From Candidatus Falkowbacteria bacterium (lineage in GTDB: Bacteria > Patescibacteriota > Patescibacteriia > Patescibacteriales > WJLG01), in assembly GCA_963747695.1 (NCBI GenBank), contig CAVVFV010000010.1:164451-228450 (forward strand): a stretch of DNA of 64,000 nucleotides. The letters are read 5' to 3'. The notes beneath the pieces were generated by a model. It had not been told where the DNA came from, ran no database searches, and worked only from the letters and a program-made list of their open reading frames with translations. Both the position numbers and the translations under genes were made by a program. Each line of letters starts with the position of its first letter. Position 1 is the stretch's first letter. Shown here one piece after another: positions 12,191-54,982 of this stretch.

Positions 12191-12227
12191 ATATCAAGCT
12201 AAAAAAATAGCTACTAAGAGAATATCT

Positions 12228-12298: not shown

Positions 12299-13201
12299 CA
12301 AATCCGTCATCTTCTTATCCAGCGCGTCGCGATCGGTTTTGGAAATCAAGTAAATGTCGTCGTTAGCCGCTGACTTGGCGTAGCAGAGATTGTCTTTGGT
12401 ACAGTCGCCGATCATGATCGTATCGTCAAAATCTCCGCCTGTAACCTGGACGATGATGCTATGCTTTTCCAAACCGGTGTTGGTAAAAGTCTGGGCGGGA
12501 ATCTTCACCGCCGTCAAATTTTGCAATACGCTTAACACCGCGTCAATCTTGGTCGCATCGACGTCGAATTTCTTCGGCTGGGTGCCAGTCCACTGGTTGG
12601 CGATCTGTTCGACGGTAAATTGCCGGTCAGGATATTGGAAGCGGATCTTCTCGCTGCGTTCCTTCATAAAAGAAAAGATGGTCAGGCTGCGCCAATCGCT
12701 GCGGCCGAAAATGCTGTTCAAATCCAAAGCGATCGAAAAAGTCTTGCTGGAATCCGGCTCGGCGATGTAGGTGCCGGAGTAATCGGGCGTCGTGGTGCCG
12801 ACCACAAAATCAAAAGTCTGCCGGCCTTGTTCGATCTCGACCTTAATTCCCTGACCATCGGTACCGAAAGAACTTTTTTTATCAGCGTTGGTGCTGACCG
12901 TTTCGATCGGCAAAACGCCGATTTCATTCAGCGCCGAGTCCAAGGCGCCGGCGGCGGTATTGTCCACGCTGAAATTTTTCACGCCGGCGATCGCCCAACC
13001 ATCGGCGGTTTTGTCCAATTCGGTTTTCTGCCCGTTATTATCGATCGAGATCTTTTTAATTTGCGCCAAAGAGACGGCGGCCAGAAAATTCTTTTCCTGC
13101 CCTTTGGTTTTTTTCCAGTCAGCCAGCGGTCCGCTCCAGATCCAAGCAAAAGCGACCAGTAATATCAAAATTCCTCCCAGGATTAAATTCTTTTTAGACA
13201 T
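12293..13201 (-). CDS. DUF4340-like secreted/anchored protein (final gene of GldG-type ABC accessory cluster)
   Basis: N-terminal TM helix, 302 aa. Genomic context downstream of the GldG-like gene as commonly seen. Confidence 0.5.
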   Translation of the reverse strand: MSKKNLILGGILILLVAFAWIWSGPLADWKKTKGQEKNFLAAVSLAQIKKISIDNNGQKTELDKTADGWAIAGVKNFSVDNTAAGALDSALNEIGVLPIETVSTNADKKSSFGTDGQGIKVEIEQGRQTFDFVVGTTTPDYSGTYIAEPDSSKTFSIALDLNSIFGRSDWRSLTIFSFMKERSEKIRFQYPDRQFTVEQIANQWTGTQPKKFDVDATKIDAVLSVLQNLTAVKIPAQTFTNTGLEKHSIIVQVTGGDFDDTIMIGDCTKDNLCYAKSAANDDIYLISKTDRDALDKKMTDLK

Positions 13202-19818: not shown

Positions 19819-19830
19819 AGATATTTAATT

Positions 19831-19872
19831 CCCCTCTTGGGAGGGGTGTCTGCCCCGCACGGACGGGGTGGG
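19831..19872. repeat. GC-rich palindromic repeat (CCCCTCTTGGGAGGGG core)
   Basis: cccctcttgggaggggtgtctgccccgcacggacggggtggg. Confidence 0.6.
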
Positions 19873-19886
19873 TTTATTGTCTTTCA

Positions 19887-20636: not shown

Positions 20637-20646
20637 AAATTTAAGT

Positions 20647-20687
20647 CCCCTCTTGAGAGGGGTGGCCGAAGGCCGGGGTGTGTGAAG
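20647..20687. repeat. GC-rich palindromic repeat (CCCCTCTTGAGAGGGG ... CGGGGTGTGTGAAG)
   Basis: Seen in sequence between hydrolase and DUF559 genes. Confidence 0.65.
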
Positions 20688-21115: not shown

Positions 21116-21247
21116 CTTCACACACCCCGTCAGTCCGCGGCGGACTGCCACCCCTCTCTAGAGGGGACTTTTTCCGACGCCGGTTTCTTCGTTGCGAAGT
21201 CCCCTCTGGAGAGGGGTGCCGAGCCCGGCGAGGCGGGGTGTGTGAAG
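21116..21247. repeat. compound GC-rich palindromic element: outer CTTCACACACCCCG/CGGGGTGTGTGAAG arms enclosing two CCCCTCT..GAGAGGGG hairpins
   Basis: Seen directly. 14-bp perfect outer inverted repeat. Inner cccctctctagagggg and cccctctggagagggg. Confidence 0.7.
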
Positions 21248-21272
21248 ATGTTATTTGCGACAAAATGATTTT

Positions 21273-24228: not shown

Positions 24229-24299
24229 AGTTGTTAGTTCAAATTAATTAATTTTGGCTCTGACAGAGTCTCGCGGCTGCAGACTCTGCCAAGGCTGAT

Positions 24300-24346
24300 C
24301 TTCACACACCCCGTCCGCGCGGCGCGGCCACCCCTCTCAAGAGGGG
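24300..24346. repeat. GC-rich palindromic repeat (CTTCACACACCCCG ... CCCCTCTCAAGAGGGG)
   Basis: Seen in sequence. Followed at 24360-24470 by a further GC-rich palindromic stretch (gtcattgcgagcgcctcgcgaagc...). Confidence 0.6.
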
Positions 24347-24481
24347 AATTTTACTTGTCATTGCGAGCGCCTCGCGAAGCAGTCTCGCCCTGACTGCGTC
24401 TGCTCTTGGGCAGGACATATTAGCCGCGAGGCGCGGGTTTGCTTCGTCGCTAATCGCTCCTCGCATATGTGTTATGTTTTT

Positions 24482-26692: not shown

Positions 26693-28048
26693 ATGGAAGG
26701 TAAATTTTTTAAAGGCTCAGTAAGCGGCTTTCCGCTTCGCGGTAGGCTGATAAATTTCGGCAGCGGCGACGCCGGCAAAACGCTTTCGGCCGCCACGAAA
26801 GTGGCCAAGGGCGCGTTGGTAGTCGGCGGCGGCCTGGCTGTCGCCAGCGGCATTATCAACCTGTTCAAATTCGGGGGTAGCTTATTAACAGCTGCTTTTG
26901 AGTCGTATGAGAGTGAAGAAGAGAAAAAAGAAAGAATCAGAAGGGAAGAAGAAATAGCCAGGGAATTGGCAAAGCAGCGGAGCAGACAGGCCTTAGAAAA
27001 ATTCAAAAATGGACTTCCCGAAATGCTGACGATCGATCTCTTGTGCATGGCCAAAACTGAGGACCAATTATTTTATGGCATTTGCGCCAGTGATAATCTG
27101 GATATCTTTTGTGAACATGAACCGTTTTCAATCCCGATTAAATTAATCAAGTTGATTACCCAGATTGAAAACCGGGGAACCCTGCTGAATGCGGTCGTCC
27201 TGCTTGACGGTTCAACTTTCGTCGTTAACGATTATTTGGACGAATTACCGACTTTGAATTTCTGGACTGTCGCCGGACTGCACAAGATTCCTCTTGGTTC
27301 AGATCTCCAGTTTGTCAGCGGAATGATGCCCAAAGATAAAGAGCAACTTGCTCAAAACTTGAGAACCTTCATGGCCCAAAAGGAAGATGATATAATTTCC
27401 CTGCTCGGCGAAGAGGGGCTGATGAAAATATTGACCGAATGCGGTATTAACCCGGTGCCAAGGCGATTAGCTGGCCTGACTCCGGCCGCCAATTGCGAAA
27501 AACAAAAAGCCGAACCGCCGCACGAGGGGGAAAGCCCCGCTACTGCAACAGAAAAAACTCCGCTGGCGGATTCAGACTCAACTTCCCGCAAAGAAGAAAC
27601 AGCTGTTCCGGATACCCAGCCCAGCGAACAGCTGAAAAGAGCGGCGATCTATGCCAAGCTGGATGAAGTCGACCGCCAAAAACTGATGACCAATTTTGAA
27701 CGGGCGGAAGAAACTGTTCCGTCAGAAAAAGCAATGCTGCTCGAAACGGAGCGACTAATCAAGAAGGTCAAATTCCATATAAAAGAGCTCGAATTTAGGA
27801 TTCGCCGGCTGTCCAATGAATTCAAATTTGACCGGAAGACACTCAAATCCAACAAAAATATCGTCAAGATTTTCAAAAACAACAAGGAGCAATATGAGGA
27901 GAACTTGCTCGAACTGGAAACTAACGCCAAAGACCTGCGACTGCAGCTAAGTAAGTGGGCGGAATATAAGAAAATAATATTCACCAGCGATGCCGACGGA
28001 TTAGATTCACTGGGCGAAGAGCTTCGGCGCGCGACTTTGGTGCAATGA
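26693..28048 (+). CDS. hypothetical protein (451 aa, Gly-rich N-terminus, charged coiled C-terminal half)
   Basis: AAAGGAG RBS 7 nt upstream of ATG. No recognisable domain. Antisense ORF 26617..27054 rejected. Confidence 0.6.
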   Translation: MEGKFFKGSVSGFPLRGRLINFGSGDAGKTLSAATKVAKGALVVGGGLAVASGIINLFKFGGSLLTAAFESYESEEEKKERIRREEEIARELAKQRSRQALEKFKNGLPEMLTIDLLCMAKTEDQLFYGICASDNLDIFCEHEPFSIPIKLIKLITQIENRGTLLNAVVLLDGSTFVVNDYLDELPTLNFWTVAGLHKIPLGSDLQFVSGMMPKDKEQLAQNLRTFMAQKEDDIISLLGEEGLMKILTECGINPVPRRLAGLTPAANCEKQKAEPPHEGESPATATEKTPLADSDSTSRKEETAVPDTQPSEQLKRAAIYAKLDEVDRQKLMTNFERAEETVPSEKAMLLETERLIKKVKFHIKELEFRIRRLSNEFKFDRKTLKSNKNIVKIFKNNKEQYEENLLELETNAKDLRLQLSKWAEYKKIIFTSDADGLDSLGEELRRATLVQ

Positions 28049-28104
28049 ATGCCAAAATTCGCCAACGGTAGTTGTCGGCAAACTTCTCAACCAGTTTTCA
28101 ATCA

Positions 28105-28138
28105 GCGCGCGTCCATTCCTCTGGACGCGCTTTTTTTA
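28105..28138 (+). terminator. rho-independent terminator
   Basis: agcgcgcgtccattcctctggacgcgc followed by tttttttag. Confidence 0.65.
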
Positions 28139-28192
28139 GCTTCTTCGAACCATTTTTTCAACAAAAAAAAGCAACCCAAGGGGGTTGCAGTT

Positions 28193-28759
28193 CTACTTGG
28201 CAGCAAACGCTAAATCGTTGCTGCTGAACATTTGCTTTTGCATCGCATCGTGCAGACAATGGAATGCCTCGGCCTTGCTGTTCCGCTGAACTTCGGCGAC
28301 TCGCAGCCGCGCCGCTTTGATCCGTTCAAACGAATCTTTCTCCTCTTTTTTCAAGCCGGCTGCCGTCCCCAGCGACAATTCATCGAGCAGCGATAGTGCC
28401 CGGTCCCAATCACCCAAATTGCTGTAAAGGCCGGATTGAAAGAACATCACGTATCGGCTTTTTTTGCCCGGTCGGCTTTGACCATTTTCCGGTTCAAAAG
28501 CATCGAGCTGCTCAGCGGAATCAGACGGATTGAGCGTTGCATACAGATCGGCGGCATGGTTCAAGAGAATTTCGGCCGACTTGAGCCATCCCAAGCGCCG
28601 ACAAGTTTCGCCCAGATAATAATAGACTGTGTGGCTGTTCGGGTTATTTTTCCGCGCCTGGCGAAAATGTATTAACGCCTCGTCCAGATTATTTTCTTCC
28701 AGACTCAATATTCCAAGATTGCAGCGAGCTTCAAACCCCAGTTTTTTAGCCATAGCCAT
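28193..28759 (-). CDS. TPR-repeat protein
   Basis: Repeated A/L/Y-rich 34-residue-like units (…EALIHFRQARKNNPNSHTVYYYLGETCRRLGWLKSAEILLNHAADLY…). Confidence 0.55.
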   Translation of the reverse strand: MAMAKKLGFEARCNLGILSLEENNLDEALIHFRQARKNNPNSHTVYYYLGETCRRLGWLKSAEILLNHAADLYATLNPSDSAEQLDAFEPENGQSRPGKKSRYVMFFQSGLYSNLGDWDRALSLLDELSLGTAAGLKKEEKDSFERIKAARLRVAEVQRNSKAEAFHCLHDAMQKQMFSSNDLAFAAK

Positions 28760-28953
28760 CCTCCTTATTATGAAGGAACAAAGCGTCTTCCTGCCTTTAA
28801 TATTAGGCCGTTGGCTGGCTTTGTCAATCCAAAATTCGGCTAAAATTATCGTGCTCTTGACATTTTTACTAATTTATGATAAGATTCCCTGATTTTAGAA
28901 GAACTTTCTAAAATATTAAAAGATCGCTATTTCACAATTAAAAGGGAGGTTTT

Positions 28954-30525
28954 ATGTTCTCTGTCGTCCTCATCACCGGTTTGTTTCTGGTTGCCGTGTG
29001 TTGGTTGGTCCACTTTGTCGCGTGGGTCAACTCAAAAATGCTCGCGCCCGACGGATCAGTCGAGTGGCTAAAAGTGAACGGCAAGGAAGACCGCGCCCAG
29101 ATCGCGCTGAAGTTTTACTTCGGCGACAATTTTGGGTGGACGATCAGCGTCCTGCGTTCCGTCTTCCGCGTCCTGATCAAGGTCGCCGCGACACTCTGGC
29201 GTTTCACCGCTCCGGCCATCGTCAGAGCCGCCAAAAAAATTCAGTTGTCGCTTTCCATAGCGCGGCTGAAAATTTTGAAAGCGCGCGCTGAAAAGAAAGC
29301 CAAGGCGGCGCGGAAAATCGTGCCGGTCATTCCCAAAGCGCGGCAGGTCAAAGCTGACAAGAAAAAGGAATTCGTCCCGATTCGGATCGAAGAACCAAAA
29401 ACGGAACTGCTCGCAACAGCAAAGCTTGCGGCGGCGGAACCGGTGGCGGAAAAAGACGAGGAGCTGACGCTGAAAGAAAAACTGGCGGCGCTCTTTGCCA
29501 AATTACTTCCCGCGAAGCCGGTGAAGAAACCCGTGCCGGTGAAAAAACCGACCGATCGGGACTTGCTTGACCAGTATCATCGCGATGCTGAAAAAACCGT
29601 CGACTACCGAACGCAAATGCATTACCTCGAACTCGCCAAAACGCAAATTCCCTTGGACATCTTTATCAGAATGCCTGGTGGAGCCGAAATTCTGGATAAA
29701 TATCTGGAAAGTAATCTTTGGGTCAGGCGGCGCTGGGAATCAGTTTGCCAATATTATTTCAGTCTGCCGTTTGAAGAACTCAATGACGAATCGTGGGTTC
29801 GGCATTGGCATTATACGGTCTGCCTGGAATCCATCCTCAAAACCGCCATCGTTCTTCCTTCCGAAGAAAAACCGGCCGATCCGATAGTCCAGCACTTCCA
29901 AACGTCGCTGCCTGAACAACAAAGCGGCGTCACGCTGGCCAATTCGAACGGAGTTTCGTTCGCTACGCTTTTTGACAAGACGGTGGGCAAAATTGTCCAT
30001 GAGGATAACGAATCCCTGCCCGCCTTAGTCGAAAAACCGAACACGGAAGCGAATGACGCCTCACGAACATCCGCTACGGCAAATCCGCCGGCGGCTGCGA
30101 CCAAAGAAAAAACTTCCGAACCGGAAATCAAAATCGCCAAAGTCGAGGCGGTCGTCACGGGTAAGGAAGACAAAGAAAAAGTAAGCGTACTGATCAAACA
30201 GGTTGATCGCACGAAGGAAGTCCAAACTCGCCAAACAAATCCGCAATCGGAAGGAGAGAGTATGAAATTCTGGGAAGATCTGAAAAATGTGTTGGGCCTG
30301 ATCCCACGCCTGAAAGGACGGTCAAAGGACGTCAAAAAAGCGCACGACGAGCTGATCGTAGCCGCCCTTAAAAAACAGGTTGCGGATACGAACAGCGATG
30401 TGCTGGTCGCCGACAAAGCCAACATGGAATTGCGCAGAGCAATTTCTCAACGAGAAAAAGAATCTGCTTCCTTTGGAACAGGAAGTCAGCGAATCATGGT
30501 TGTTGCACTACATAGAGCTCGATGA
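28954..30525 (+). CDS. membrane-anchored hypothetical protein. A probable frameshift near 30440 would extend it to 30643.
   Basis: N-terminal TM, Lys/Ala/Pro-rich linker, then globular region. ORF 30380..30643 in the +1 frame continues with protein-like sequence (…LEQEVSESWLLHYIELDEAKKAHEQGKTIEE…) after an A5 run at ~30450. Confidence 0.55.
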   Translation: MFSVVLITGLFLVAVCWLVHFVAWVNSKMLAPDGSVEWLKVNGKEDRAQIALKFYFGDNFGWTISVLRSVFRVLIKVAATLWRFTAPAIVRAAKKIQLSLSIARLKILKARAEKKAKAARKIVPVIPKARQVKADKKKEFVPIRIEEPKTELLATAKLAAAEPVAEKDEELTLKEKLAALFAKLLPAKPVKKPVPVKKPTDRDLLDQYHRDAEKTVDYRTQMHYLELAKTQIPLDIFIRMPGGAEILDKYLESNLWVRRRWESVCQYYFSLPFEELNDESWVRHWHYTVCLESILKTAIVLPSEEKPADPIVQHFQTSLPEQQSGVTLANSNGVSFATLFDKTVGKIVHEDNESLPALVEKPNTEANDASRTSATANPPAAATKEKTSEPEIKIAKVEAVVTGKEDKEKVSVLIKQVDRTKEVQTRQTNPQSEGESMKFWEDLKNVLGLIPRLKGRSKDVKKAHDELIVAALKKQVADTNSDVLVADKANMELRRAISQREKESASFGTGSQRIMVVALHRAR

Positions 30526-30666
30526 AGCCAAGAAAGCCCACGAGCAAGGCAAAACCATCGAAGAAATCAAGCTCAAACTCAGTTCGCCCAAGGATGGCGA
30601 ACCGGAAACTATGCCCAAAGCGGCTCAAGAACAGCTGGCCTAAGGCGAGCAAGCATCAAATGTATC

Positions 30667-30703
30667 GACCCTGACTGTCTTATTCAGTCGGGGTCTTTTT
30701 TTA
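30667..30703 (+). terminator. rho-independent terminator
   Basis: cgaccctgactg...cagtcggggtc followed by tttttttatt. Confidence 0.6.
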
Positions 30704-30804
30704 TTCATTATCTAAAAAATATAGCTAAAACCTCTTAATTTTCCCGATAAATTATCTCTAATATTAAATGATTTACCGCCATTTTCATCTTTCCCCTAAA
30801 ACCA

Positions 30805-30834
30805 TTGACTTTTCATGCTATTTTATGCTATACT
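30805..30834 (+). promoter_or_regulatory. sigma70-like promoter (TTGACT - 18 nt - TGcTATACT extended -10)
   Basis: Seen in sequence upstream of the long structured leader and the SPFH gene. Confidence 0.5.
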
Positions 30835-30870
30835 AAAATGATTTGGAATAAGGCAAATTCTGCCAAGGGG

Positions 30871-31026
30871 ACTGTCATCGAATGCTCATTTAGTCATAAA
30901 TTTTCAAATTTTGAGGAAATTTTTTTCAAAAATTTTTGAAGCGATATGACCATATCGTTGAAAAGATTTTTGAAAAAATTTACCGAAATTTGAAGATTTA
31001 GGGCAAATACGGCATTCGATGACAGT
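30871..31026 (+). other. long stem-loop: 15-bp perfect inverted repeat (ACTGTCATCGAATGC / GCATTCGATGACAGT) enclosing ~125 nt of AT-rich TTTCAAA(A)TTTTTGA(A)G repeats, in the 5' leader of the SPFH gene
   Basis: Seen directly. Ends ~90 nt before the SPFH start codon. Confidence 0.6.
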
Positions 31027-31114
31027 TCCCGAATCTGAATCAAATGTCCCTTACAATTTTTTGTAAGTAACATCAAAACAATCCATTCTGAAACCTTAAT
31101 CAAAGGAGTCCTGT

Positions 31115-32887
31115 ATGATGAACGCGCTTATCGTTGTCGCGATTGTGTTGGCTGTCTATCTTCTCGCCCGGTTCTGGATCTTCCGGAACTGGTTCGCGAA
31201 GAGAAAGACGGAGACCGAGTATGAGAAACGATTGTCGGAAATCCGCGCGACCGAAGAAGGAAGAAGGGTCGCCGACGAAATCCGCCTAACTGAGCTGGAC
31301 CTCGAAAGAACGAAGAAGCAAACCTTGACCGAACAGGAAAAGATCAACCTCATCCAGTTGCGCAAAACTCATCTCGAGTTGAAGCGGTCATTGCTCAAAT
31401 CCTTGAAGGATGAAGAGCCGACTGCCGGCGCAACGGACTCCGGAGTCGAAGATTCCCAAAACAAGCGAAGCCGTCGCGGGAAAAAAGGCTGGTCAGTAAT
31501 GATCAGTTTAGTTTCGCTGGCCGCAATCGTCATTTGGGCCGGAATGAGTTTTCTCAATCACTGGGAATGGCCCGCCACCTATCTGCCGATCATCGGTATG
31601 ATCGCGGCCGCCGTGCTCATCATCAGGAGACTTAATTCGAACAAAAAAAACAAGGTCAACCAGACAGGAAACAAGACGGGCAGGAAGTCCAAACCAGGCA
31701 AAAAAAAGAGCAAAGAAATTACTCAATTATTTTACCCTCACTGGTTATGGATTTCGTTTCTGGCAATGATAAGTCTTATTCCTATTACCGTTTTGATTCT
31801 GAATCTTTCTTGGCAGTACAGTCAGAAACATCCGGCAATTTTTTATCTCAGCATTGTCATTTCCCTGCTCATCGCGGCTTATTATCTGGTGCGTACGGTC
31901 AAAGGCGCAAACAATCCGTTGCCGGAAAAAGATGAGTTTGCCGTAACTATTTTTAAAAAATATTGCGGCACAAGGAAAACCCCCGGGCTATTCTTTGCCT
32001 TTCCCCTTTTCGGCTGGGTCGAACTTCTGGGCATAAGCACGGAAGACGATCAAGAGCAATTATTCCAAGTGGTCGATAAAGAAGGAAAAGTGAGCACGGC
32101 GCGGTTTGACCTCGACGATGCGAGCGTTCCCCTGCTGGCCGACGTCTTCTTCCGAATCGTCGATGCGTATAAATTCCTTTTCGGCAATGAAGATAGCGTC
32201 CAGTCCATGGTCGAATATGTCGAAGCCTATCTGCGGCGAGTCTTTATAGTGCCAGCGGATGCGGCAAGCGGAAAATCAGAACGAGTCATGAATTTGGAAG
32301 AAGCCTTACTGTTCAAAGCCAAAGACATGATCACCCGCTTTAATACCGAGAATAACGAAAACGGAGAAGTTCATCGTGATTTCGTTAAGTCTCATTGGGG
32401 AATAGAAGTTTTTCGGATCCAGATCAGGGACTTTGACCTAAATGAAGAACAGCGCAAAGCGTTAAATATGAAACTTGAAGCGAAAAAAAGAAAAGAAGCG
32501 GCCCGGGAAGATGCCGATGCCGAAGCTGTGCGAGCTGACGGCAAAGCGCGCGGAATCGAAAGGCTGGCTAAAGCAAGCCGGGTGGAATTTGCGGAAAATG
32601 CCGCAGGATATTCGGATGCCGTAAACTCGTTCGCGGGCAAAGTCGAACCCGACGAAGTTCTTTTTCACATTAGGGAAATGAGAAAATTCGGTATGCCTAA
32701 TGCCACCCTCGTCATCAGCGACGGAGGCGGCAATGCGGCATTTGGCGCCCAATTCGAAGCGGGCCGCCAAGCTTACAACAGAAACAACGAAAGGAAAGAA
32801 CCAAATGCTGAAACCATATTACCCAAGAAACGGCCGGACGGTTCAAAGGAAGGAACAGGGTCTTCCGACAAAAAACCCAACGGCTGA
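31115..32887 (+). CDS. SPFH/band-7 (stomatin/flotillin/HflK-like) domain membrane protein with extended multi-TM N-terminus
   Basis: Central region ...FFAFPLFGWVELLGISTEDDQEQLFQVVDKEGKVSTARFDLDDASV...DSVQSMVEYVEAYLRRVF...FRIQIRDFDLNEEQRKALNMKLEAKKRKEAAREDADAEAVRADGKARG fits the SPFH domain plus coiled-coil. Several N-terminal TM helices. Confidence 0.6.
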   Translation: MMNALIVVAIVLAVYLLARFWIFRNWFAKRKTETEYEKRLSEIRATEEGRRVADEIRLTELDLERTKKQTLTEQEKINLIQLRKTHLELKRSLLKSLKDEEPTAGATDSGVEDSQNKRSRRGKKGWSVMISLVSLAAIVIWAGMSFLNHWEWPATYLPIIGMIAAAVLIIRRLNSNKKNKVNQTGNKTGRKSKPGKKKSKEITQLFYPHWLWISFLAMISLIPITVLILNLSWQYSQKHPAIFYLSIVISLLIAAYYLVRTVKGANNPLPEKDEFAVTIFKKYCGTRKTPGLFFAFPLFGWVELLGISTEDDQEQLFQVVDKEGKVSTARFDLDDASVPLLADVFFRIVDAYKFLFGNEDSVQSMVEYVEAYLRRVFIVPADAASGKSERVMNLEEALLFKAKDMITRFNTENNENGEVHRDFVKSHWGIEVFRIQIRDFDLNEEQRKALNMKLEAKKRKEAAREDADAEAVRADGKARGIERLAKASRVEFAENAAGYSDAVNSFAGKVEPDEVLFHIREMRKFGMPNATLVISDGGGNAAFGAQFEAGRQAYNRNNERKEPNAETILPKKRPDGSKEGTGSSDKKPNG

Positions 32888-33443
32888 AAAGGAAAACACA
32901 AATGGTGAATCGGGAACTCCGGAAAAATGCCAACCAACGGGCAGGCCGGCGGTGAGCAATGAAACACTGTCAATTCTTTTCGTGATCGGAGTATTCGTAG
33001 TCGGGACAATTCTTCTGGCATATCTCCAGAACTTGAAAAACCCTGCCGCGACCATCACGGACATCGTGTTCAGCAATAATTTCTGGTTGTTTACCGTAGC
33101 CTGCGTTTTAAGCTGGATCTACGGCGTGATCAAGAAAAAAAGCTTGCTGCACGTTGTCAACCGAATTCTTCTCCTGGAAATAGCGGTCTTAGCGATAATA
33201 CTGCTGTTGCCGGTGGTATTTGTTAAAAAACCAGTTGTCGCGGAAAGCTACGCCATGAACCGACCGACGGCCTACACAGCACCGTTGGCGAATGTCGCGG
33301 GGAAATATGTATTTTCCCTTGACTCGCTCGGTCAAGGAAGGAACGTTCTGATTTTCTGCCCGGACGGCCAGTCCATTGGGCGGTCGGCACCGACAAGTGC
33401 CAAAACAACGCCCTGCTCTCTGTCAGGGGCAACGATACATTGA
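32805..33443 (+). CDS. membrane protein overlapping the SPFH gene end (possibly NfeD-like partner)
   Basis: AAAGGAAAG RBS ~10 nt upstream of ATG at 32805. Three TM helices then a ~70-aa C-terminal domain. SPFH genes are commonly paired with NfeD (established knowledge). The NfeD assignment itself is only inference. Confidence 0.45.
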   Translation: MLKPYYPRNGRTVQRKEQGLPTKNPTAEKENTNGESGTPEKCQPTGRPAVSNETLSILFVIGVFVVGTILLAYLQNLKNPAATITDIVFSNNFWLFTVACVLSWIYGVIKKKSLLHVVNRILLLEIAVLAIILLLPVVFVKKPVVAESYAMNRPTAYTAPLANVAGKYVFSLDSLGQGRNVLIFCPDGQSIGRSAPTSAKTTPCSLSGATIH

Positions 33444-33835
33444 GAAGCTGGCTGACAGACCAACATTCGGAGGGCCTGCAGAAAGACTTCGTAATGATCG
33501 CGATTGCCCCGATGGAAGTATCGAATTCACGGAAAAGTCGGGATGATCTATGACCCCGCCTGATTGCCAAAGCAAAAAGGAGCGTAAAAACACAACCTAA
33601 GGGAAGCGCACAATGTCTTCCCTTTTTTATTTTGCCTAAATGAGATATAATAATACTGATGGTTTACAATAACCTTCAAAAAAGCCCTTATGAAAAATAT
33701 TATTAAAATTTTCCCTTGTTTTATCGATAATTTCACATTCGCGATCACGGCAAAATTAGTTTTGGCCGATGACAATATCACGGCACTTGTACTTGCGATC
33801 GTATCGGCCAAGATGCTTACGCCGAAGATGCGCCA

Positions 33836-34315
33836 ATGGGTTGGGTAGCGGATGAAACCGGCGAAACAGGCATTGACTTGCACGACAGTATCGCCCAAGA
33901 TGCTTGTGCAAATACGGTTCCGAATGTGGCCGGCAGCGATGCCAGCGGCTGGCGAACAAACTGGACCGGATTGGGCGGTAGCGGCCGACCGGTTCCGGAT
34001 GAGCGACTCCGGATCAACGCCCGTCCGGATACCGGTACCGTCCCGGCCGTCAATTTGAATAATCCTTTAGGCAATACCGTTACCGTTCCCGGACTGGTTC
34101 ACAATATTATCAATGCCGCGCTCGGCGTGGTCGGATCATTGGCTTTGGTGATGTTCATCTATGGCGGCTTCACTTGGATGCTTGCCGCCGGCAACGAACA
34201 AGCTGTGGAGAAGGGCCGCAACATTTTGGTCTGGGCGGCGGTCGGCCTGGTCGTCATCTTCGCTTCTTATTCTTTCGTCAACTTCGTCATCAGCGCCATC
34301 ACCAGCAGCGGCTAG
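33836..34315 (+). CDS. TrbC/VirB2-like T4SS pilin. Apparent signal peptide sits in a different frame (33690..33845).
   Basis: C-terminal ...GLVHNIINAALGVVGSLALVMFIYGGFTWMLAAGNEQAVEKGRNILVWAAVGLVVIFASYSFVNFVI = two TM helices around a short loop, the VirB2/TrbC hallmark. Upstream frame-0 ORF MKNIIKIFPCFIDNFTFAITAKLVLADD... looks like its signal peptide, separated by a -1 shift near 33775-33790. Confidence 0.6.
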   Translation: MGWVADETGETGIDLHDSIAQDACANTVPNVAGSDASGWRTNWTGLGGSGRPVPDERLRINARPDTGTVPAVNLNNPLGNTVTVPGLVHNIINAALGVVGSLALVMFIYGGFTWMLAAGNEQAVEKGRNILVWAAVGLVVIFASYSFVNFVISAITSSG

Positions 34316-34394
34316 GATCAATTAAAATTAAAAATGAAAAATTAACAATTTCTCTAAAAAAACGCCGGATAATTTCCGATGTTTTTTAAATGAT

Positions 34395-34640
34395 AAAAAT
34401 TACTCATTATAGCGCGCATTGGAAAATTTTCCGTAATCACGCAGCGTATCATTCCCGCTGGCGGGAAAGGAAGCCGTGCAAAATTGCGTTGTCCGAAGCC
34501 CCGCTTCATTTATTAGGATTTTATAAAGGAAAGCGGGGCAAGTATAGCAATTTTGCTAGGCTTCATAGCGAAGTGATAGGAAATTTGTCCAGCGCGCGAT
34601 TTTTTGCGCCACTTTTTTTAAAAAAAGTGGCAAAGATGTT
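34395..34640 (+). ncRNA. conserved structured non-coding element, copy 1 (homolog at 61945-62172). Class unknown.
   Basis: Shared blocks gcgcgcattggaaaatttt / cgcagcgtatca / cgctggcggga / ccgtgcaaaattgcgttg / agcaattttgctagg / ttcatagcg / aatttgtccagc / gcgccactttttttaaaaaagtggcaaa. A variable hairpin sits between the blocks. Frame is not conserved between copies, so the tracker ORF 34390..34794 is rejected. Confidence 0.5.
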
Positions 34641-34672
34641 GATTTGTTCATTAGTAATAATGTCGGTAATAG

Positions 34673-34738
34673 ACCCTCCCCGTCTCGCCCACGCCCAAGG
34701 GGACACGGCGGGCTCGGCACCCCTGCCGTGGAGGGGAC
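34673..34738. repeat. GC-rich palindromic repeat (…GGCTCGGCACCCCTGCCGTGGAGGGG)
   Basis: Same family as 37563-37606 (gggctcggcacccctcccaagagggg). Sits just after the tyrS stop. Confidence 0.6.
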
Positions 34739-34749
34739 TTTTTTTACTT

Positions 34750-35970
34750 CTAACTTCTTACTTTGACAAATCCCCGTTTACCTTTCTGAATTAAGACTTC
34801 TTTGTCCGCCACCGCCATTTCCGCTTCCCGGTCGCTGACAGTTTGATTATCAACCTTCACGCCGCCCTGTTCGATCAATCGGCCGGCCTCGCTTTTGGAT
34901 TTGGCCAAGCCGGCTTCAACCAGAAATCAGTTAATTGATAATTTCCGGCTGACATTTTGAAGACTGGGATATCAGCCGGTACTTCTTTATTCTGCACCGT
35001 GGCTTCAAAACCGCGCTGGGCTTTTACCGCTTCATCTTCGCCGCGGACGTTTTGACGATTTCGAAAGCCATCATTTTTTTATACTCCATCGGATTGACCC
35101 CTTTGGCCATCTCGCTTTTGATTTCTTTGATCGCTTCCAGCGGAACCTCGGTCAATAATTCCAAACCCATCGCGATATGATCATCGGAATAAGACATCGC
35201 TTTGCCGTACATATCAGCGGAAGAATCGACAAATTTATGCCATTGCCCTTAGTCTTGGACATGGTCCGGCCGTCGGGCGCGTCCATCATCTTGTTGGCGC
35301 GGACAAATCTTTCTTTGCCCAAATAAGCCTTGGATAATTCACGCCCGGCCAGCATATTGAAAGTCTGGTCAGCGCCGGCAATTTCCATATCGACGTTCAT
35401 CGCCACGCCGTCATAACCTTGCATCAAGGGATAAATAAACTCGTGCAAGCCGATCGGATCGCCGGCCGCCAGACGGCGATCGAACATATCGCGATCAAGC
35501 ATCTGCTGCACGGTCATATGCGACATCAATTTGATCACTTCGTCCAGCTTTAATTGCGAAAGCCATTCATGGTTGCGTTTGAATTGGACGGGATTATCGC
35601 CGCCGAAATCAATCAGCTGCGCGGCTTGTTCTTTCCAACCCTGTAAATTTTCTTCGATCTCGGCAACGGAAAGCATCTTCCGGCCGGATTCCTTATCCGG
35701 GTCGCCAACGCGGGCGGTGTAATCACCGACCAGAAAAATCACTTCATGGCCGAGCTGTTGCAGAATGCGCATCGCCCGGATACCCATCGCGTGCCCGACG
35801 TGCAAAAATTTACCGGTCGGATCATAACCTTGGTAAATGCGCAGCCGCTCGCCCGAATACAATTTTTCCCGGAAGCCGTCAACGGAGGGATAAATCGCCT
35901 CGACGCCGCGGGTTAAGAACTTTTCAATCAATTCTTTGTCGACAATCACTTTGGACATATTTTTTATCAA
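34750..35970 (-). pseudogene. tyrS: tyrosyl-tRNA synthetase broken by three 1-nt frameshifts (or local sequencing errors)
   Basis: N-terminal part 35152..35970 (HIGH-like HVGHAMG, KMSKS-like TMSKTKGN), middle part 35024..35212 (MYGKAMSYSDDH...), C-terminal S4 domain in a third and fourth frame (...NYQLTD / FLVEAGLAKSKSEAGRLIEQGGVKVDNQTV...KGKRGFVKV). Shifts map to AAA/AAAA, TTT/TTTT and GCGG(G)CG sites. Confidence 0.75.
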
Positions 35971-35984
35971 AATTATATTTAGCT

Positions 35985-36752
35985 TTAGTTATTATGGCCG
36001 TTCCGCCTGAACAGGAAAGGCAGCTGGCCGAATATTTCCCGCCAGACCTGGCAATAGAGCCAGAAAATATTTTGCCGGTATTCATCAGGCTGATAGCGAT
36101 AGCATTTCGCCGTCTTGACCATTTCCCCTTCCGCGTCAGCCTGTCTGCCCTCGATCGCGGCCAGCGAGCAGGAACCGGTATTGAAATAATTGATCGCTTT
36201 GAAGCACCAAATCTTACCGGCTTGCCGCTGCAGGATGACGGCCGGTAATGCCGAAAGGAGAACCGTGGCCGGAAGCAGAAAACAAGCTAATTTTTCCGAA
36301 AAGCCCGGACGGCCAACCTTGATCTCCCTGGAAAAATCATGCCCGTAAAGCAGGCGATGATTTTTCTTGATCTCAAAAAGGAATAGATTCCGGCCGACCA
36401 ATTTGGTCATCAATCTGAGCCGGAAGCTGACCGGCTGGAAAGATTCATTCAATTCATCGCGTCCGATAACGATCAGATGAATTCCGCCGAAGCTGTTACT
36501 GGCCAAGAAGATCCGCTGGATAAAGGCATTGAGCCGAGTCGGATGGATGCCGAAAATTTTCTCTTGCGCTCTTACGGCGGCGGCGAAAACTTTTTTGGTA
36601 TCCCGCTTGCCGGGACAAATGATCAAAAGATCGATATCGGAAATGGCCAGATCTTTTTCGCCGACTCCGGACCCTAAAACTTCTACAGAAATGATCTTGT
36701 CTTTCTGATCTCTGACTAACTCTTCAACAAAAAGTTGTGTTCTGTTTTCCAT
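35985..36752 (-). CDS. nucleotidyltransferase-fold protein (hypothetical)
   Basis: VEVLGSGVGEKDLAISDIDLLII = GS...DxD motif. Start trimmed to MENRTQ... because the longer ORF runs across tRNA-Leu. Confidence 0.5.
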   Translation of the reverse strand: MENRTQLFVEELVRDQKDKIISVEVLGSGVGEKDLAISDIDLLIICPGKRDTKKVFAAAVRAQEKIFGIHPTRLNAFIQRIFLASNSFGGIHLIVIGRDELNESFQPVSFRLRLMTKLVGRNLFLFEIKKNHRLLYGHDFSREIKVGRPGFSEKLACFLLPATVLLSALPAVILQRQAGKIWCFKAINYFNTGSCSLAAIEGRQADAEGEMVKTAKCYRYQPDEYRQNIFWLYCQVWREIFGQLPFLFRRNGHNN

Positions 36753-36862
36753 TATTTTATCTGACGGTGCGGATGGAGAGATTTGTCCGCTACGTCGGCC
36801 TTTGACCGCGAGCGGATCCGCGCGCGCCGCATCGCGGCGACGTCGCGGAAACCCGTCTTGTT

Positions 36863-36947
36863 TGGTGCAGACGGTGGGACTTGAACCCACATGAATTGCT
36901 TCACAAGCTCCTAAGGCTTGCGCGTATACCAGTTCCGCCACGTCTGC
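36863..36947 (-). tRNA. tRNA-Leu (anticodon TAG), class II with long variable arm, CCA encoded
   Basis: Minus-strand read GCAGACGTGGCGGAACTGGTATACGCGCAAGCCTTAGGAGCTTGTGAAGCAATTCATGTGGGTTCAAGTCCCACCGTCTGCACCA. Acceptor GCAGACG/CGTCTGC, anticodon loop CTTAGGA, T-arm GTGGGTTCAAGTCCCAC. Confidence 0.85.
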
Positions 36948-37535: not shown

Positions 37536-37655
37536 TTTGCGAATGATGCGAATCTACGAATAACCCACCCCGCCTCGCCGGGCTCGGCACCCCTCCCAAG
37601 AGGGGAATTCGCGCAATTCGCATCATTAGCGAAATTAGCATTATCATTAATTAGC
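37536..37655. mobile_element. MITE-like composite: AT-rich terminal inverted repeats (TGCTAATTTGCGAATGATGCGAAT / ATTCGCATCATTAGCGAAATTAGCA) flanking a GC-rich CCCCTCCCAAGAGGGG core
   Basis: Seen directly. A solo copy of the AT-rich arm (aatgctaattttcgaatgatgcgaatctacgaata) occurs at 2186-2222 upstream of rpsA. Confidence 0.5.
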
Positions 37656-45382: not shown

Positions 45383-45454
45383 GGTCCCTTCGTCTATCGG
45401 TTAGGACACCAGGTTTTCATCCTGGTAAGAGGGGTTCGACTCCCCTAGGGACTA
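45383..45454 (+). tRNA. tRNA-Glu (anticodon TTC), no encoded CCA
   Basis: GGTCCCTTCGTCTATCGGTTAGGACACCAGGTTTTCATCCTGGTAAGAGGGGTTCGACTCCCCTAGGGACTA. Acceptor GGTCCCT/AGGGACT (one GU), anticodon loop TTTTCAT, T-arm GGGGTTCGACTCCCC. Confidence 0.85.
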
Positions 45455-45668
45455 CGTAAAAGAAAACACTCGACCTCAGTCGAGTGTTTTCTTTTACGTA
45501 ATTTCGGGAGTCGAACTGGTTGCGAGCGAGCTATGAGCCGCGAGGGAACGAGCGGCGAATAAGCAAGCGACGCCAGACGCGACCAACGGGAGCGTTTGGC
45601 GGCAACCCCGGACAAAGGAGCGAAGCGCAATCCGGCGCCGAGCGACTGCGACGACTCCCCTAGGGACT
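45455..45668 (+). other. 214-bp GC-rich structured element X, copy 1: 21-bp perfect hairpin plus GC-rich core, ending in a 17-bp copy of the tRNA-Glu 3' end (CGACTCCCCTAGGGACT)
   Basis: Seen directly. ~96% identical to copy 2 (47420-47633). Copy differences include a compensatory hairpin change (gcgcaatccggcgc vs ggcggtttccgcc). Confidence 0.8.
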
Positions 45669-45680
45669 TCGGATAAATAA

Positions 45681-45710
45681 AAAATACTGACTTAACGCCA
45701 GTATTTTTTA
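45681..45710. terminator. bidirectional hairpin terminator (aatactgacttaacgccagtatt with flanking A/T runs)
   Basis: Downstream of cassette gene A1 on the minus strand. Confidence 0.6.
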
Positions 45711-45729
45711 TTTATCCGAATTTTTAAAA

Positions 45730-46392
45730 CTATTTTGCAAATCTAAAAGTTTCCACTATGGCTTTCATCATCGCATCCTCATTGAGTATATTAGATCCCA
45801 TTCCCGCCGTCATTGGATCAAATTCATAAATCAAGTTTCCTTTTTTAACAAAGTAGGAATAAGACCTCCCGTAAATAGAATCTTGGGAATAAAATGACAT
45901 AGCCTCATCGCTTGTAGGAATATCAACTTTGTTTAAATTTTCTGCTTTAGCCCCCTGACTAGAATATGCTTTTATAATCCAATCTTCAAGTGACAGATTA
46001 CTTACATTTTCGGATGCCGATATATTTACTGGGATATCAAAATCTCCACTAGACTTGGGGAAAATTTGCATGGAACCGCCATTTTGCAAAGATTTATCGC
46101 TTGATGTAAACGATACTATCCAATCCTTAGGAGCACTTATTTTATAACCATACTGTTTGTTTTCGTATGTTTGCCAATCGTTTTTATCGATTTTTACCGC
46201 ATCGATTTCAACTACGGTTGGGTGCTGTGAAATCGTCGAGGAAGCGATTGCAGACACCGGAGTAGAAGTGCTTATAGTTTCCTTTTTAACTTCTGGAACA
46301 GCTGAATGAGATTGATATTTAACAAAAATGATCAAACCCGCGACGATAATCAAAACAATGCCTACGCAAATAAAAATAATGTTTTTTTTCAT
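45730..46392 (-). CDS. cassette gene A1: N-terminally membrane-anchored extracytoplasmic protein, paralog of A2
   Basis: 220 aa. TM then Ser/Thr-rich linker. C-terminal ...AMMKAIVETFRFAK shared with A2 (...AMMKAIIETFRFTK). Confidence 0.6.
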   Translation of the reverse strand: MKKNIIFICVGIVLIIVAGLIIFVKYQSHSAVPEVKKETISTSTPVSAIASSTISQHPTVVEIDAVKIDKNDWQTYENKQYGYKISAPKDWIVSFTSSDKSLQNGGSMQIFPKSSGDFDIPVNISASENVSNLSLEDWIIKAYSSQGAKAENLNKVDIPTSDEAMSFYSQDSIYGRSYSYFVKKGNLIYEFDPMTAGMGSNILNEDAMMKAIVETFRFAK

Positions 46393-46481
46393 AGAATGAA
46401 ACTTTTTATTATGATAAATTTATAAATAATTAAAATAGGGGGCGGTGTTTTCTTGAACACCGCCCGATTAATAACCGATCA

Positions 46482-47138
46482 CTATTGGATGTGATAAACA
46501 TTGTAGCCCAGTTTTTGGTTAGCCGACGTAGGCCTGGTAAATGCGTAAAAGTCGGAATACGACACGAAGTGGGTAGAGATATAATTTTCTTTTGGCGGAT
46601 TGTTTGCCGGTGCCGCGACAAAATTACAATCCAGCATGTAAAAACCTTTCACGCCGCCCACTGTTACGTTTCCGTTTAGAAAAAAAGAAGTGTGCTGAGT
46701 AGGGTGATAGGTACCGTCAGCCCAGCGAACATTCCAATACATTTGGATAATGTCAGCTGGGACGCAATATTCGACCATTGTGCTTCTGCCTTGGATCGGC
46801 ATACATGGGGCATCCTGCCACATGCTCATGTTATTCGGATAATATGCCGGAATCTGGACGGCTTGTCCGCTTGCCGTCAAAACGACATGAGACACCCAAC
46901 CCCAACACTGCCCCGTGTTGTGGCCACCAATTTCGGAATTTGCTTTGGCAAGAATCTTACTGTCCCTAGTCGCTTGCGGCAATGCTTCCCACGTCTTCAT
47001 TGCCGTTGATTGCGTGCAACCAGAAGAAAGTGCTGCTATGGGTTGTGCGGATTGTTCTTTACTGCTATTTACGGGATTATTACTGCATCCCAAAACAACA
47101 AACAGAAAAGCAAGTGAAACAAATAGATTGGTTTTCAT
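46482..47138 (-). CDS. cassette gene B1: CHAP-domain (Cys/His amidohydrolase-peptidase-like) lipoprotein
   Basis: Signal plus lipobox ...VLGCSNNPVNSSKEQ. GQCWGWVSHVV (CHAP Cys motif) and ...TQHTSFFLNG (His). Paralog of B2. Confidence 0.6.
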   Translation of the reverse strand: MKTNLFVSLAFLFVVLGCSNNPVNSSKEQSAQPIAALSSGCTQSTAMKTWEALPQATRDSKILAKANSEIGGHNTGQCWGWVSHVVLTASGQAVQIPAYYPNNMSMWQDAPCMPIQGRSTMVEYCVPADIIQMYWNVRWADGTYHPTQHTSFFLNGNVTVGGVKGFYMLDCNFVAAPANNPPKENYISTHFVSYSDFYAFTRPTSANQKLGYNVYHIQ

Positions 47139-47419
47139 GCCAATCCTCCTTTGGTTTAGAATGGTTTAGTTTCCTGACAATAGTAATCAATTTTGAAAAG
47201 AACGAGCGTAAAAGAACCGGAACTAACTGGTATTCGCTTTCATCTCAATCTCCTTGTTAAGATTATACGATTTATTAACTATAATTAATAGGTTAGCAAA
47301 AAAAAAATGGCCTTTGTCAAATTTTTCAATAATTTAAGCCTAAAATTTTACTGGCACCAACCTTTTCCATTTCCGAATATCCTGGATGATGGGGTGTAAA
47401 TTCTCAATACAGTAGTCTA

Positions 47420-47633
47420 CGTAAAAGAAAACACTCGACCTCGGTCGAGTGTTTTCTTTTACGTAATTTCGGGAGTCGAACTGGTTGCGAGCGAGCTATG
47501 AGCCGCGAGGGAACGAGCGGCGAATAAGCGAGCGACGCCAGACGCAACCAACGGGAGCGTTTGGCGGCAACCCCGGACAAAGGAGCGAGGCGGTTTCCGC
47601 CGCCGAGCGACTGCGACGACTCCCCTAGGGACT
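47420..47633 (+). other. structured element X, copy 2
   Basis: cgtaaaagaaaacactcgacctcggtcgagtgttttcttttacgtaatttcgggagtcgaactggttgcgagcg...cgactgcgacgactcccctagggact. Confidence 0.8.
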
Positions 47634-47696
47634 ACGGATATAAAAAAGACTGATACTATCAGTCTTTTTTATTTGAATCGTTCCAATTTGTTCGAA

Positions 47697-48371
47697 CTAT
47701 TTTGTAAACCTAAAAGTTTCAATTATTGCCTTCATCATTGCATACTGATCAAGTAAATCACTATTCAAATCCATGGCACCAAAACCGAAAACATCATCGC
47801 CCTTTTTAACATAAGCACCATAAATCCCGTGTGACAATCCAACAAATGCTCCGTCGCTCGACGGAATGTTTATCTCCATTATTTGCGCGGGGTTATCCTT
47901 CGCTTCCTGGCGATATTTTTTAAGCCAAACTTCTGGTGATGAAGTGTCATGAATAATGCCAATTGCTGTAGGAGCATTAAATTTTTCATCGCTATTTGGC
48001 ATTATCAATAACTCGGTGCCATTTAAAAGATCGAGTTTCCCCGTAAAATTCCATCCCGCCGGAGCACTAATTTCAAAACCATACTTTTCATCCTTGTAAA
48101 TTTGCCAATTATTTTTATCTATTTTCACAGCGTTTATTTCTGCAAAGGTTGGATATGCTAAATTTGGAGATGAAGATGCTATCGTCCCCAAATTTGAGCT
48201 GCTAGCAACATTGTTCTGCTGGTTAATTAAAGAACTCGAAGAAGCAATTTTATTGACCTGATTTGCCCTATTCTTTTGATAACTTTTTTTCAATGGATAC
48301 TCTTTTAAAACAACAACTCCGACTACAAGTAAAATAACTGCCAGCCAAATTAAGATTGTTTTTTTCTTCAT
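47697..48371 (-). CDS. cassette gene A2 (paralog of A1)
   Basis: 224 aa, same architecture and conserved C-terminus. Confidence 0.6.
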   Translation of the reverse strand: MKKKTILIWLAVILLVVGVVVLKEYPLKKSYQKNRANQVNKIASSSSLINQQNNVASSSNLGTIASSSPNLAYPTFAEINAVKIDKNNWQIYKDEKYGFEISAPAGWNFTGKLDLLNGTELLIMPNSDEKFNAPTAIGIIHDTSSPEVWLKKYRQEAKDNPAQIMEINIPSSDGAFVGLSHGIYGAYVKKGDDVFGFGAMDLNSDLLDQYAMMKAIIETFRFTK

Positions 48372-48452
48372 ATAAATATAAAAATTATTTAAATTTAAAA
48401 ATTGGAATGGTGTATTCTGCTAAACACCATTCCAGCTAACTAATTGCTATTG

Positions 48453-49136
48453 TCACTGAATCTGATATACCGAAAAACCCAAAAGTGGATTATTCACGGT
48501 GGCGGTGGTAAATAATTTGAAATCCGCGTAGGTCACTTTATGAACACTAACCGTGTACTTCGGGCTAAAATTACAATCAATCCACATCATGCAATTTTTA
48601 GTGTCGTCCGTATAGCCACTTGTATTACTTACAACAATTGCAGTGTGTGGGCCTTGGGGACCCAAAGATCCGTTGGCTAACCTTGGTGTCCACCAAAGCT
48701 GAAATATTTGGCCAGGCGCAACCCAAGGAAGTGATGAAGCATTGCTATAAAGCTTTACGACTTGGCTGTTAAAGCAATCTGCACTTAACCATGAATAATA
48801 GTTGGGGGTGCCGCCATGATCACAAGTATTGGCACCGATCGTGATGCCGCTAACCGGCAAAACAACATACGATTGCACCCAAGGCTTACACTCAACGGGC
48901 GGAATGTAGTTACTATAGTTGTTACCATTCATTGCTTGCGCAAAGGCCAAAAGCTTCGCATTTTTTTGCGGTTGCGACAGTAAATTCCAGGCCTGCAAGG
49001 TAGGCGTTATCGTACAAGTGGTGGCTACTGCTGCAAGTGGTTGAACCAACTGTTCTTTACTGCTATTCACGGGATTATTACTGCATCCCAAAATTGCAGC
49101 TGACAAGACAAGAGCAAAACAAAGATATTTTTTCAT
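48453..49136 (-). CDS. cassette gene B2: CHAP-domain lipoprotein (paralog of B1)
   Basis: Identical lipobox region ILGCSNNPVNSSKEQ. CKPWVQSYVV and GPHTAIVVSN motifs. Confidence 0.6.
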   Translation of the reverse strand: MKKYLCFALVLSAAILGCSNNPVNSSKEQLVQPLAAVATTCTITPTLQAWNLLSQPQKNAKLLAFAQAMNGNNYSNYIPPVECKPWVQSYVVLPVSGITIGANTCDHGGTPNYYSWLSADCFNSQVVKLYSNASSLPWVAPGQIFQLWWTPRLANGSLGPQGPHTAIVVSNTSGYTDDTKNCMMWIDCNFSPKYTVSVHKVTYADFKLFTTATVNNPLLGFSVYQIQ

Positions 49137-49476
49137 ATCCAGCCCTTTGGTTGCTGAGTTGATGGTTTAATGATCTGACAATAGTAATCAATTTTTAAAA
49201 GAACAAATACTGAAAGAACATTAGCTTGAATCCATTTTTTCGCCTCCCTGTTAGAATTATACGGTTTATTAATGACTATTAACAGAGTAGCAAAAAAAAA
49301 ATGACATTCGTCAAATTTTTCAATAATTTAAGCCTAAAATTTCACTTATATAAATATCATCCATTTCTTAATATCCGCGATAATAGGATGTAAATTCTCA
49401 ATACAGTAGTCTACTGAAAATAAAATACCGCCACGCAAATTCGCGGGCGGTATAAATTATTCTGCTAAAAAAGAGC

Positions 49477-54907: not shown

Positions 54908-54982
54908 CGCGGGTATCGTATAGCGGTTATTATGCCAGTTTTCCAAACTGGTCATAGGGGTTCGACTCCCCTTACCCGCTCC
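54908..54982 (+). tRNA. tRNA-Gly (anticodon TCC), CCA encoded
   Basis: GCGGGTATCGTATAGCGGTTATTATGCCAGTTTTCCAAACTGGTCATAGGGGTTCGACTCCCCTTACCCGCTCCA. Acceptor GCGGGTA/TACCCGC, anticodon stem CCAGT/ACTGG with loop TTTCCAA. Confidence 0.85.

Follow-up and report, generated by a model that had tools for sequence, protein, structure and literature searches.

Clustered single-base frameshifts in tyrS and three neighbouring genes of a Patescibacteria contig, probably a local consensus artefact

The tyrS locus and its setting

The window analysed here is a 64,000-nucleotide stretch of a contig from Candidatus Falkowbacteria (CAVVFV010000010.1). Its gene order, DnaK-HSP20-GrpE-HrcA-TPR-fast-evolving membrane/charged proteins-pilin-tyrS (on the opposite strand)-tRNA-Leu-MamF-like-PPDK-TsaD, matches that of four related loci (L001, L005, L006 and L007). 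The tyrosyl-tRNA synthetase (TyrRS) gene, tyrS, sits where its relatives carry it: the locus is conserved and syntenic, only one tyrS occurs in each of the relatives found, and in the syntenic relatives examined this copy lies at the same place.

The proteins encoded between the TPR gene and the pilin gene are hypervariable, reaching at most 30-45% identity even where the flanking genes are 90-97% identical between genomes. The frameshifts described below overlap this strain-variable surface-protein island, which adjoins tyrS; the 3′ half of tyrS itself is conserved, not variable. The 434-bp spacer between tyrS and the pilin gene contains repeat and hairpin elements only, and a scan of positions 33400-36000 against Rfam returned chance-level matches only. 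A GIY-YIG remnant, present between the two genes in L001, was also looked for in this spacer, with zero similarity found.

Within the island, the SPFH/Band-7 gene encodes a protein whose N and C termini resemble those of its syntenic counterparts in L006 and L007 (494-499 aa). The mature domain of the pilin is recognized by PF18895 (E 2.4e-11; 44 bits, gathering cutoff 26.6; residues 86-151 in ORF 33836-34315) and shares 70-85% identity with the pilins of the relatives. The coordinates of these genes, and of the six sites at which their reading frames are shifted, are collected in Table 1.

Table 1. Features of the tyrS locus, with positions in the window; q, residues of the tblastn query
Feature	Positions	Strand or frame	Description
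28954 gene	28954-30643	plus	Fast-evolving protein, TM segment at the N terminus, charged regions; called length 523 aa (28954-30525), true length ~562 aa
Site A (28954 gene)	30455-30459	plus	A5 run, one base in excess; A4 restores the frame; sole insertion-type shift
SPFH/Band-7 membrane protein gene	31115-32887	plus	PF01145; 590 aa; intact despite its position between shifted genes
Small membrane-protein gene	32700-33553	plus	Just 5′ of the pilin gene; probable start ATG 32805; called as 247 aa ending at 33443, true end 33553
Site B (small membrane-protein gene)	33352-33355	plus	T4 run, one base short; T5 restores ...NVLIF-LPGRPVHWAV...
T4SS-type pilin gene (PF18895)	33690-34315	plus	Signal peptide and mature domain one frame apart; ~208 aa reconstructed
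Site C (pilin)	33776-33784	plus	Base missing between ...ADDN and HGTCTC; no run >2 nt
tyrS, tyrosyl-tRNA synthetase gene	35958-34750	minus	ATG 35958, stop at 34750; 403 aa after repair; four frames as deposited
tyrS piece 1	35958-35227	frame -2	q1-244
tyrS piece 2	35227-35048	frame -1	q245-304
tyrS piece 3	35048-34890	frame -3	q305-357
tyrS piece 4	34926-34768	frame -2	q346-398
Site D (tyrS)	34923-34926	minus	Base missing in GATTT_CTG; T3->T4 (F346) or third base lost from a Leu codon (TTR/CTT)
Site E (tyrS)	35047-35053	minus	Base missing in AAAACG_TC; A4->A5 (K-N-V-R) or G->GG (K-T-V-R)
Site F (tyrS)	35225-35232	minus	Base missing in codon 244, TTG TC_ GAT; outside AAA and TTT runs
tRNA-Leu(TAG)	36863-36947	minus	Intact; conserved upstream boundary of the tyrS locus

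Six single-base shifts in four adjacent genes

An earlier note on this DNA had claimed that three 1-nt indels divide tyrS among four frames. This is borne out by tblastn of intact orthologues against the locus, which aligns as four collinear pieces in frames -2, -1, -3 and -2. One base is missing at each frame change, giving three 1-nt deletions in total, all within 310 bp, and the repaired frame is free of stop codons. As deposited, the longest tyrS ORF runs through residue 244 and continues for 24 out-of-frame residues, and the C-terminal domain lies in a different frame from that of the catalytic domain.

The placement of the three deletions differs from that in the earlier note, which had given positions 35025 and 34830; the actual sites are F, E and D of Table 1. 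Its AAA/AAAA placement would alter N242-L243, which are invariant in 60/60 homologues. Because N242, L243 and D245 are all invariant in this set, the deletion at site F is assigned to codon 244, where the residue varies (G/A/S/N). A GCGG/GCGGG placement would similarly alter I/V305 and R/K306, and is excluded at site E because these two residues and G307 are conserved. At site D, the consensus at residue 346 is L.

Once repaired, TyrRS matches PF00579 in one stretch (residues 37-321, profile positions 4-290/292, E 7.9e-65), followed by a C-terminal SYY/S4 domain (PF22421, E 2.1e-10; PF01479, E 3.5e-9; residues 328-399). Both TyrRS signature motifs are present in columns that are invariant among orthologues, the HIGH motif as HVGH (53-56) and the KMSKS-type motif as TMSKT (232-236). 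The protein is 84-87% identical to intact orthologues of 403-404 aa, with its best matches in Patescibacteria MAGs, and aligns to them with zero internal gaps; the sole difference in length is one residue at the C-terminal end.

In the pilin gene, the called ORF opens at an internal M (33836) and has no signal peptide. The signal peptide, MKNIIKIF...LADD, begins instead at ATG 33690, in a frame unlike that of the mature domain, as the earlier note had claimed. The L005 pilin aligns collinearly over the two frames, with residues 1-27 at 33690-33770 (frame 1) and residues 29-42 (GNCDCRESLDQDAY) at 33782-33820 (frame 3), and a stop codon of the mature frame at 33773-33775 limits site C. A signal peptide contiguous with the mature domain is absent from the deposited sequence and is obtained only when one base is added at 33776-33784. 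A compensated double shift within the signal peptide (PCFIDNF vs LVLSIIS) was considered as well; it would raise hydropathy from 1.55 to 2.21, but is unneeded and has no support from homology, and was set aside as speculation.

The 28954 gene carries the only insertion, at the A5 run where the earlier note had suspected a shift (~30450), and its called ORF stops 24 codons past this run. Removal of one A yields a product of 562 aa that aligns end-to-end with the 561-aa protein P0122 (42% identity, E 1e-139), which confirms the C-terminus, ...QLA, shared by both. The junction at site A is gapless, with QREK|NLLPLEQEV in the window against AQRDLLPLEHEV in the homologue. The small membrane-protein gene likewise yields, after reconstruction, a protein that aligns without gaps over the junction to its syntenic counterparts in L007 (255 aa, E 1e-25) and L006 (246 aa, E 1e-21). 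None of these homologues of the two genes (P0122 and the L006 and L007 proteins) has the shift.

Altogether, six single-base frameshifts affect four neighbouring genes within a 4.8-kb stretch, and the contig is otherwise clean. Five are single-base deletions within 33352-35232, a density of ~0.26% across 33.35-35.23 kb, and one is a single-base insertion at 30455-30459. The three genes named in the earlier note (tyrS, the pilin gene and the 28954 gene) are all affected as it had claimed; the sixth shift, in the T4 run at 33352-33355, had been overlooked. Six shifts fall in ~6 kb of checked coding sequence and zero in ~35 kb elsewhere in the window, a clustering that exceeds chance, since under a uniform rate its probability is (6.0/41.1)^6, or ~1e-5.

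The ~35 kb of clean sequence comprises genes outside 28954-35958 that are single ORFs with full-length profile or orthologue matches. They include S1, QueA, RuvB, a 1055-aa UvrD/PD-(D/E)XK helicase-nuclease, a UvrC-like protein, ABC transporter parts, DnaJ, DnaK, HSP20, GrpE, HrcA, PPDK, TsaD, SOD, PGI, Lgt, a serine recombinase, LytR, Der and Pth. ORF tiling of the window revealed no further broken genes. Three suspect pairs of overlapping or adjacent ORFs, at 19887-20765/20692-21114, 61967-62158/62119-62574 and 40084-41439/41423-41677, were considered as additional frameshift candidates, but each consists of genes that are separate or complete.

The shifts are thus present in the sequence, occur in this record only and lie close together, and their repair yields conserved proteins of full length without other damage. 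A shared shift was found in none of ~150 related loci (tblastn matches) or 120 listed proteins, and the listed TyrRS homologues are single ORFs of ~400-470 aa, those of close relatives being 403-404 aa. Searches of genome, metagenome and gene-position collections recovered neither the source contig nor an independent copy of the locus. The truncated products P0121 (523 aa) and P0124 (268 aa) and the neighbouring proteins are present in a public protein collection, as singletons at 90% identity that derive from one 453,905-bp contig, so the shifts stand in the public record.

Sequence context of the shifts and condition of the repaired tyrS

The earlier note had attributed the shifts to miscalled homopolymers, a mechanism that fits poorly. 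The affected genes contain 16 runs of 6-8 nt, all unshifted, including A7 at 29233 and 33135, and T7 at 35074 within tyrS, between two of its shifts. Also among the 16 are A8 at 31643 and 31700 and A7 at 32483, all in the intact SPFH gene. The runs at the shifts themselves measure just 1-5 nt, and a run of at least 4 is required at no more than two or three of the six. Site F lies outside any run, and the other two tyrS sites are equally placeable off-run. The shifts are not concentrated in long homopolymers, where such miscalls would be expected; randomly placed single-base deletions, from a low-depth single-molecule consensus or mis-polishing, fit better than homopolymer-length miscalls. A shared motif at the sites (GATT..CT or GANTC), which might indicate methylation-linked miscalls, was rejected as a cause: noticed post hoc, it is found at 4/6 sites, and ~250 occurrences in the window are expected from base composition, with indels at these sites only.

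Two observations run counter to an artefact. Miscalls of the nanopore, 454 or Ion type would not be expected to leave the 16 long runs correct, and the 1.8 kb SPFH gene is unbroken inside the patch.

Short runs beside several of the shifts also raise the question of recoding, in which real shifts would be bridged in translation, by ribosomal frameshifting, or in transcription, by slippage, to produce full-length proteins; the change would be -1 at five sites and +1 at A5. Programmed frameshifting of dnaX (-1) and prfB (+1) and poly(A) transcriptional slippage in endosymbionts are known examples. As in those systems, a one-base change of frame would restore the proper protein at full length, and some sites have short runs that look slippery. 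Formal slippery patterns are found at F (A_AAT_TTG), B and D (T_TTC) and A (A_AAA_G), and slippage there would yield products of exactly orthologue length. However, any indel beside a short run creates the appearance of a slip site, and sites C and E offer no option for re-pairing. In contrast to the known systems, the shifts are conserved in no orthologue, and six events are spread over four unrelated genes in contexts of only 1-5 nt. Segments of 75 nt located 3′ of the six sites hold no stimulatory RNA structure beyond shuffled controls (z -1.49 to +1.77), leaving formal patterns at A, B, D and F alone, with neither a conserved shift nor a slippery site paired with structure. Transcriptional slippage needs a run of 8 or more, far above the 3-5 nt of the runs at these sites, and hardly any product would be expected from an essential gene in which three such events must succeed one after another. 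Recoding of this kind is highly improbable.

Genes that were truly inactivated would be expected to show decay, and repaired tyrS was examined for its signs. At columns invariant in 60 homologues, the repaired TyrRS has 0 changes. Compared with the 25 closest sequences it has 11 private residues, all conservative (the range in the others is 0-29), and 3 of the 11 fall within the 102-codon interval from the first shift to the last. On the 3′ side of the first shift, dN/dS is 0.09-0.16, vs 0.075-0.21 in pairs of intact orthologues, and the dN of 0.100 between the tyrS genes of the window and L005 is among the lowest. Excess non-synonymous or private substitutions and stop codons are thus all absent from the repaired gene, although with a nearest relative at dS ~1 neither dN/dS nor the count of private substitutions would readily reveal a very recent inactivation. 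As judged from these alignments, the damage to tyrS is indel-only, a very recent event lying beyond the power of the tests at this dS.

It is such an event that a reading of the shifts as genuine would require. tyrS and the three surface or membrane genes would then be young pseudogenes, in a cell with a second TyrRS copy elsewhere or in a dead-end lineage. The ORFs are indeed broken in the public record, an inactivation that came long after the split from the nearest relative (dS ~1) would escape the tests, and loss of the pilin and membrane genes is plausible in a hypervariable island. TyrRS is universally required, however, and the relatives found have one tyrS each. In neutral decay, substitutions outnumber indels. 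The pattern in tyrS is unlike this: three independent indels within 310 bp are accompanied by no more than 3 private amino-acid changes, and the repaired frame is free of stops. Real mutation is also disfavoured by the 6-8-nt runs, all of them unchanged although long runs are where natural slippage tends to produce indels. Damage to four adjacent genes at once, with 35 kb elsewhere clean, would be hard to achieve by selection or drift. Very recent inactivation is considered unlikely.

Reductive or host-dependent bacteria, such as Mycobacterium leprae and recent endosymbionts, carry true pseudogenes. The present case resembles theirs in having several frameshifts per ORF in the small genome of a probably host-associated organism. 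It differs in the absence of a substitution burden, in-frame stops or relaxed dN/dS, and in affecting an indispensable aminoacyl-tRNA synthetase (aaRS) at its native locus, next to pristine housekeeping genes.

Origin and meaning of the frameshift cluster

The six shifts are probably local assembly or consensus errors rather than biology. That four unrelated adjacent genes are affected points to a regional process, not a gene-specific one. The earlier note had likewise preferred a local sequencing or assembly error to a true pseudogene, and this part of its proposal is the best supported, on indirect evidence: indel-only damage, no substitution burden in tyrS, and shifts in four adjacent genes, one of them essential and single-copy at its conserved syntenic locus, in an otherwise clean window. 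The homopolymer mechanism that it attached to the error is poorly supported. Under this explanation, living cells of the Patescibacteria population would have intact, functional versions of the 28954 gene, the small membrane-protein gene, the T4SS pilin gene and tyrS, and the deposited contig would contain a short patch of poor consensus. The indels probably arose in assembly or polishing, where read support may have been thin or discordant; as a variant, polishing may have drawn on mis-mapped reads of another strain.

In public assemblies, many of the 'pseudogenes' called from frameshifts have been shown to be artefactual, their occurrence varying with assembler, platform and coverage (PMC11017572). 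Like the spurious 'pseudogenes' described in public bacterial genomes and MAGs (Cooley and Wright, 2024; PMC11017572), the shifts reported here are indel-only, repair to full length, affect an essential gene, are unique to one assembly and are tightly local. They differ from these in missing the usual bias towards long homopolymers and in being confined to one patch instead of occurring contig-wide.

One form that the artefact could have taken, offered tentatively and as less likely than not to apply, is a consensus of mixed strains. Two co-assembled strains, strongly divergent over the variable island and the 3′ portion of tyrS, would have produced 1-nt gaps through a per-column consensus or polishing with mis-mapped reads. 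The patch does coincide with the region that is hypervariable among relatives, and the positions of the shifts are independent of long homopolymers. On the other hand, the 3′ half of tyrS is conserved and shows no visible mosaic substitutions, and in the assembled sequence such a mixture looks the same as a low-depth consensus.

Should the deposited bases be true, the tyrS result would be remarkable. The cell would lack an in-frame tyrS and survive through low-level ribosomal slippage at three sites or by means of a host TyrRS or host-charged tRNA-Tyr, and such loss or recoding of tyrS would be unprecedented for a bacterial aminoacyl-tRNA synthetase. This scenario is given very little credence.

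With local consensus error as the favoured origin, the cluster illustrates that clustered, indel-only frameshifts without a substitution burden are recognisable as artefactual even without reads. Read literally, the record points to a CPR bacterium that lacks TyrRS and has a pilin devoid of its signal peptide and two truncated membrane proteins. Left uncorrected, it could mislead estimates of genome completeness, claims of aaRS loss in symbionts and analyses of surface proteins. The main value of the finding is therefore as a quality flag, and the corrected coordinates let annotators restore four genes to this organism.

The pilin gene and its surface-protein island

The T4SS-type pilin gene is part of a surface- or membrane-protein island whose gene order is kept but whose sequence is hypervariable. 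Among relatives, identity within the island is no more than 30-45%, compared with 90-97% for the flanking genes. The pilin signal peptide (33690-33770) carries P, D and N within its hydrophobic core, PCFIDNF. Over the same 21 nt, the +1 frame reads LVLSIIS, for which the mean hydropathy is 2.21 against 1.55 for PCFIDNF, and this reading would give a cleaner pilin signal peptide. The signal peptide may contain a further compensated indel pair, for which homology across 33690-33770 gives no backing.

Variable surroundings of tyrS

The convergent pilin and tyrS genes are separated by a 434-bp spacer (34316-34749) in which coding signal is absent. A long hairpin (34472-34564) lies within it, as do two sequences repeated elsewhere in the window: 34545-34603 is 81% identical to intergenic 62059-62117, and 34659-34688 is 97% complementary to intergenic 3651-3680. 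Among relatives' loci with matching gene order around tyrS, the spacer holds a GIY-YIG gene in L001 and spans just 95 bp in L007.

Between tRNA-Leu and tyrS lies an inserted ORF of ~254 aa without a Pfam match (within 35985-36860). In another such locus, L005, tRNA-Leu is found 59 bp upstream of tyrS, and in L001 the slot is occupied by an unrelated 255-aa gene. Across the window, L005 and L001, the slot adjoining tRNA-Leu is variable.

GC-rich palindromic elements of one family, each consisting of a CCCCTCT..AGAGGGG core followed by a second GC-rich stem, occupy intergenic positions 3' of genes, with one member immediately past the tyrS stop. These elements resemble REP elements or terminators.

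Repeats and a recombinase at tRNA genes

A tandem duplication of ~2 kb (45452-49428) begins immediately after tRNA-Glu (45383-45455). Each unit contains two ORFs of ~220 aa, without Pfam matches, and a 48-nt perfect hairpin (45453-45500 and 47418-47465).

Coordinates of the island, repeats and recombinase locus in the window
Feature	Position	Strand	Description
Surface-protein island	26693-34315		451-aa protein, TPR protein, TM/charged protein, SPFH protein, small membrane protein, pilin
GC-rich palindromic elements	7498-7534, 19827-19874, 20643-20683, 21124-21249, 24298-24350, 34700-34745, 37562-37612		
CTTCTTA heptamer array	12226-12302		perfect tandem, ~11 copies; intergenic, UvrC-like gene/DUF4340 gene
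Duplication boundary pair 1	45452-45682/47417-47647		95% identical
Duplication boundary pair 2	47250-47434/49244-49428		81% identical
tRNA-Gly	54909-54983		directly adjoins serine recombinase gene
Large serine recombinase gene	54952-56469	-	Resolvase, Recombinase and Zn-ribbon domains
Inverted repeat arms	54971-55152 and 56921-57102		182 nt, 98% complementary

The serine recombinase gene is bracketed by the inverted repeats, the left arm of which starts within the 3' end of tRNA-Gly. The segment at tRNA-Gly may be invertible, or it may be an integrated element.
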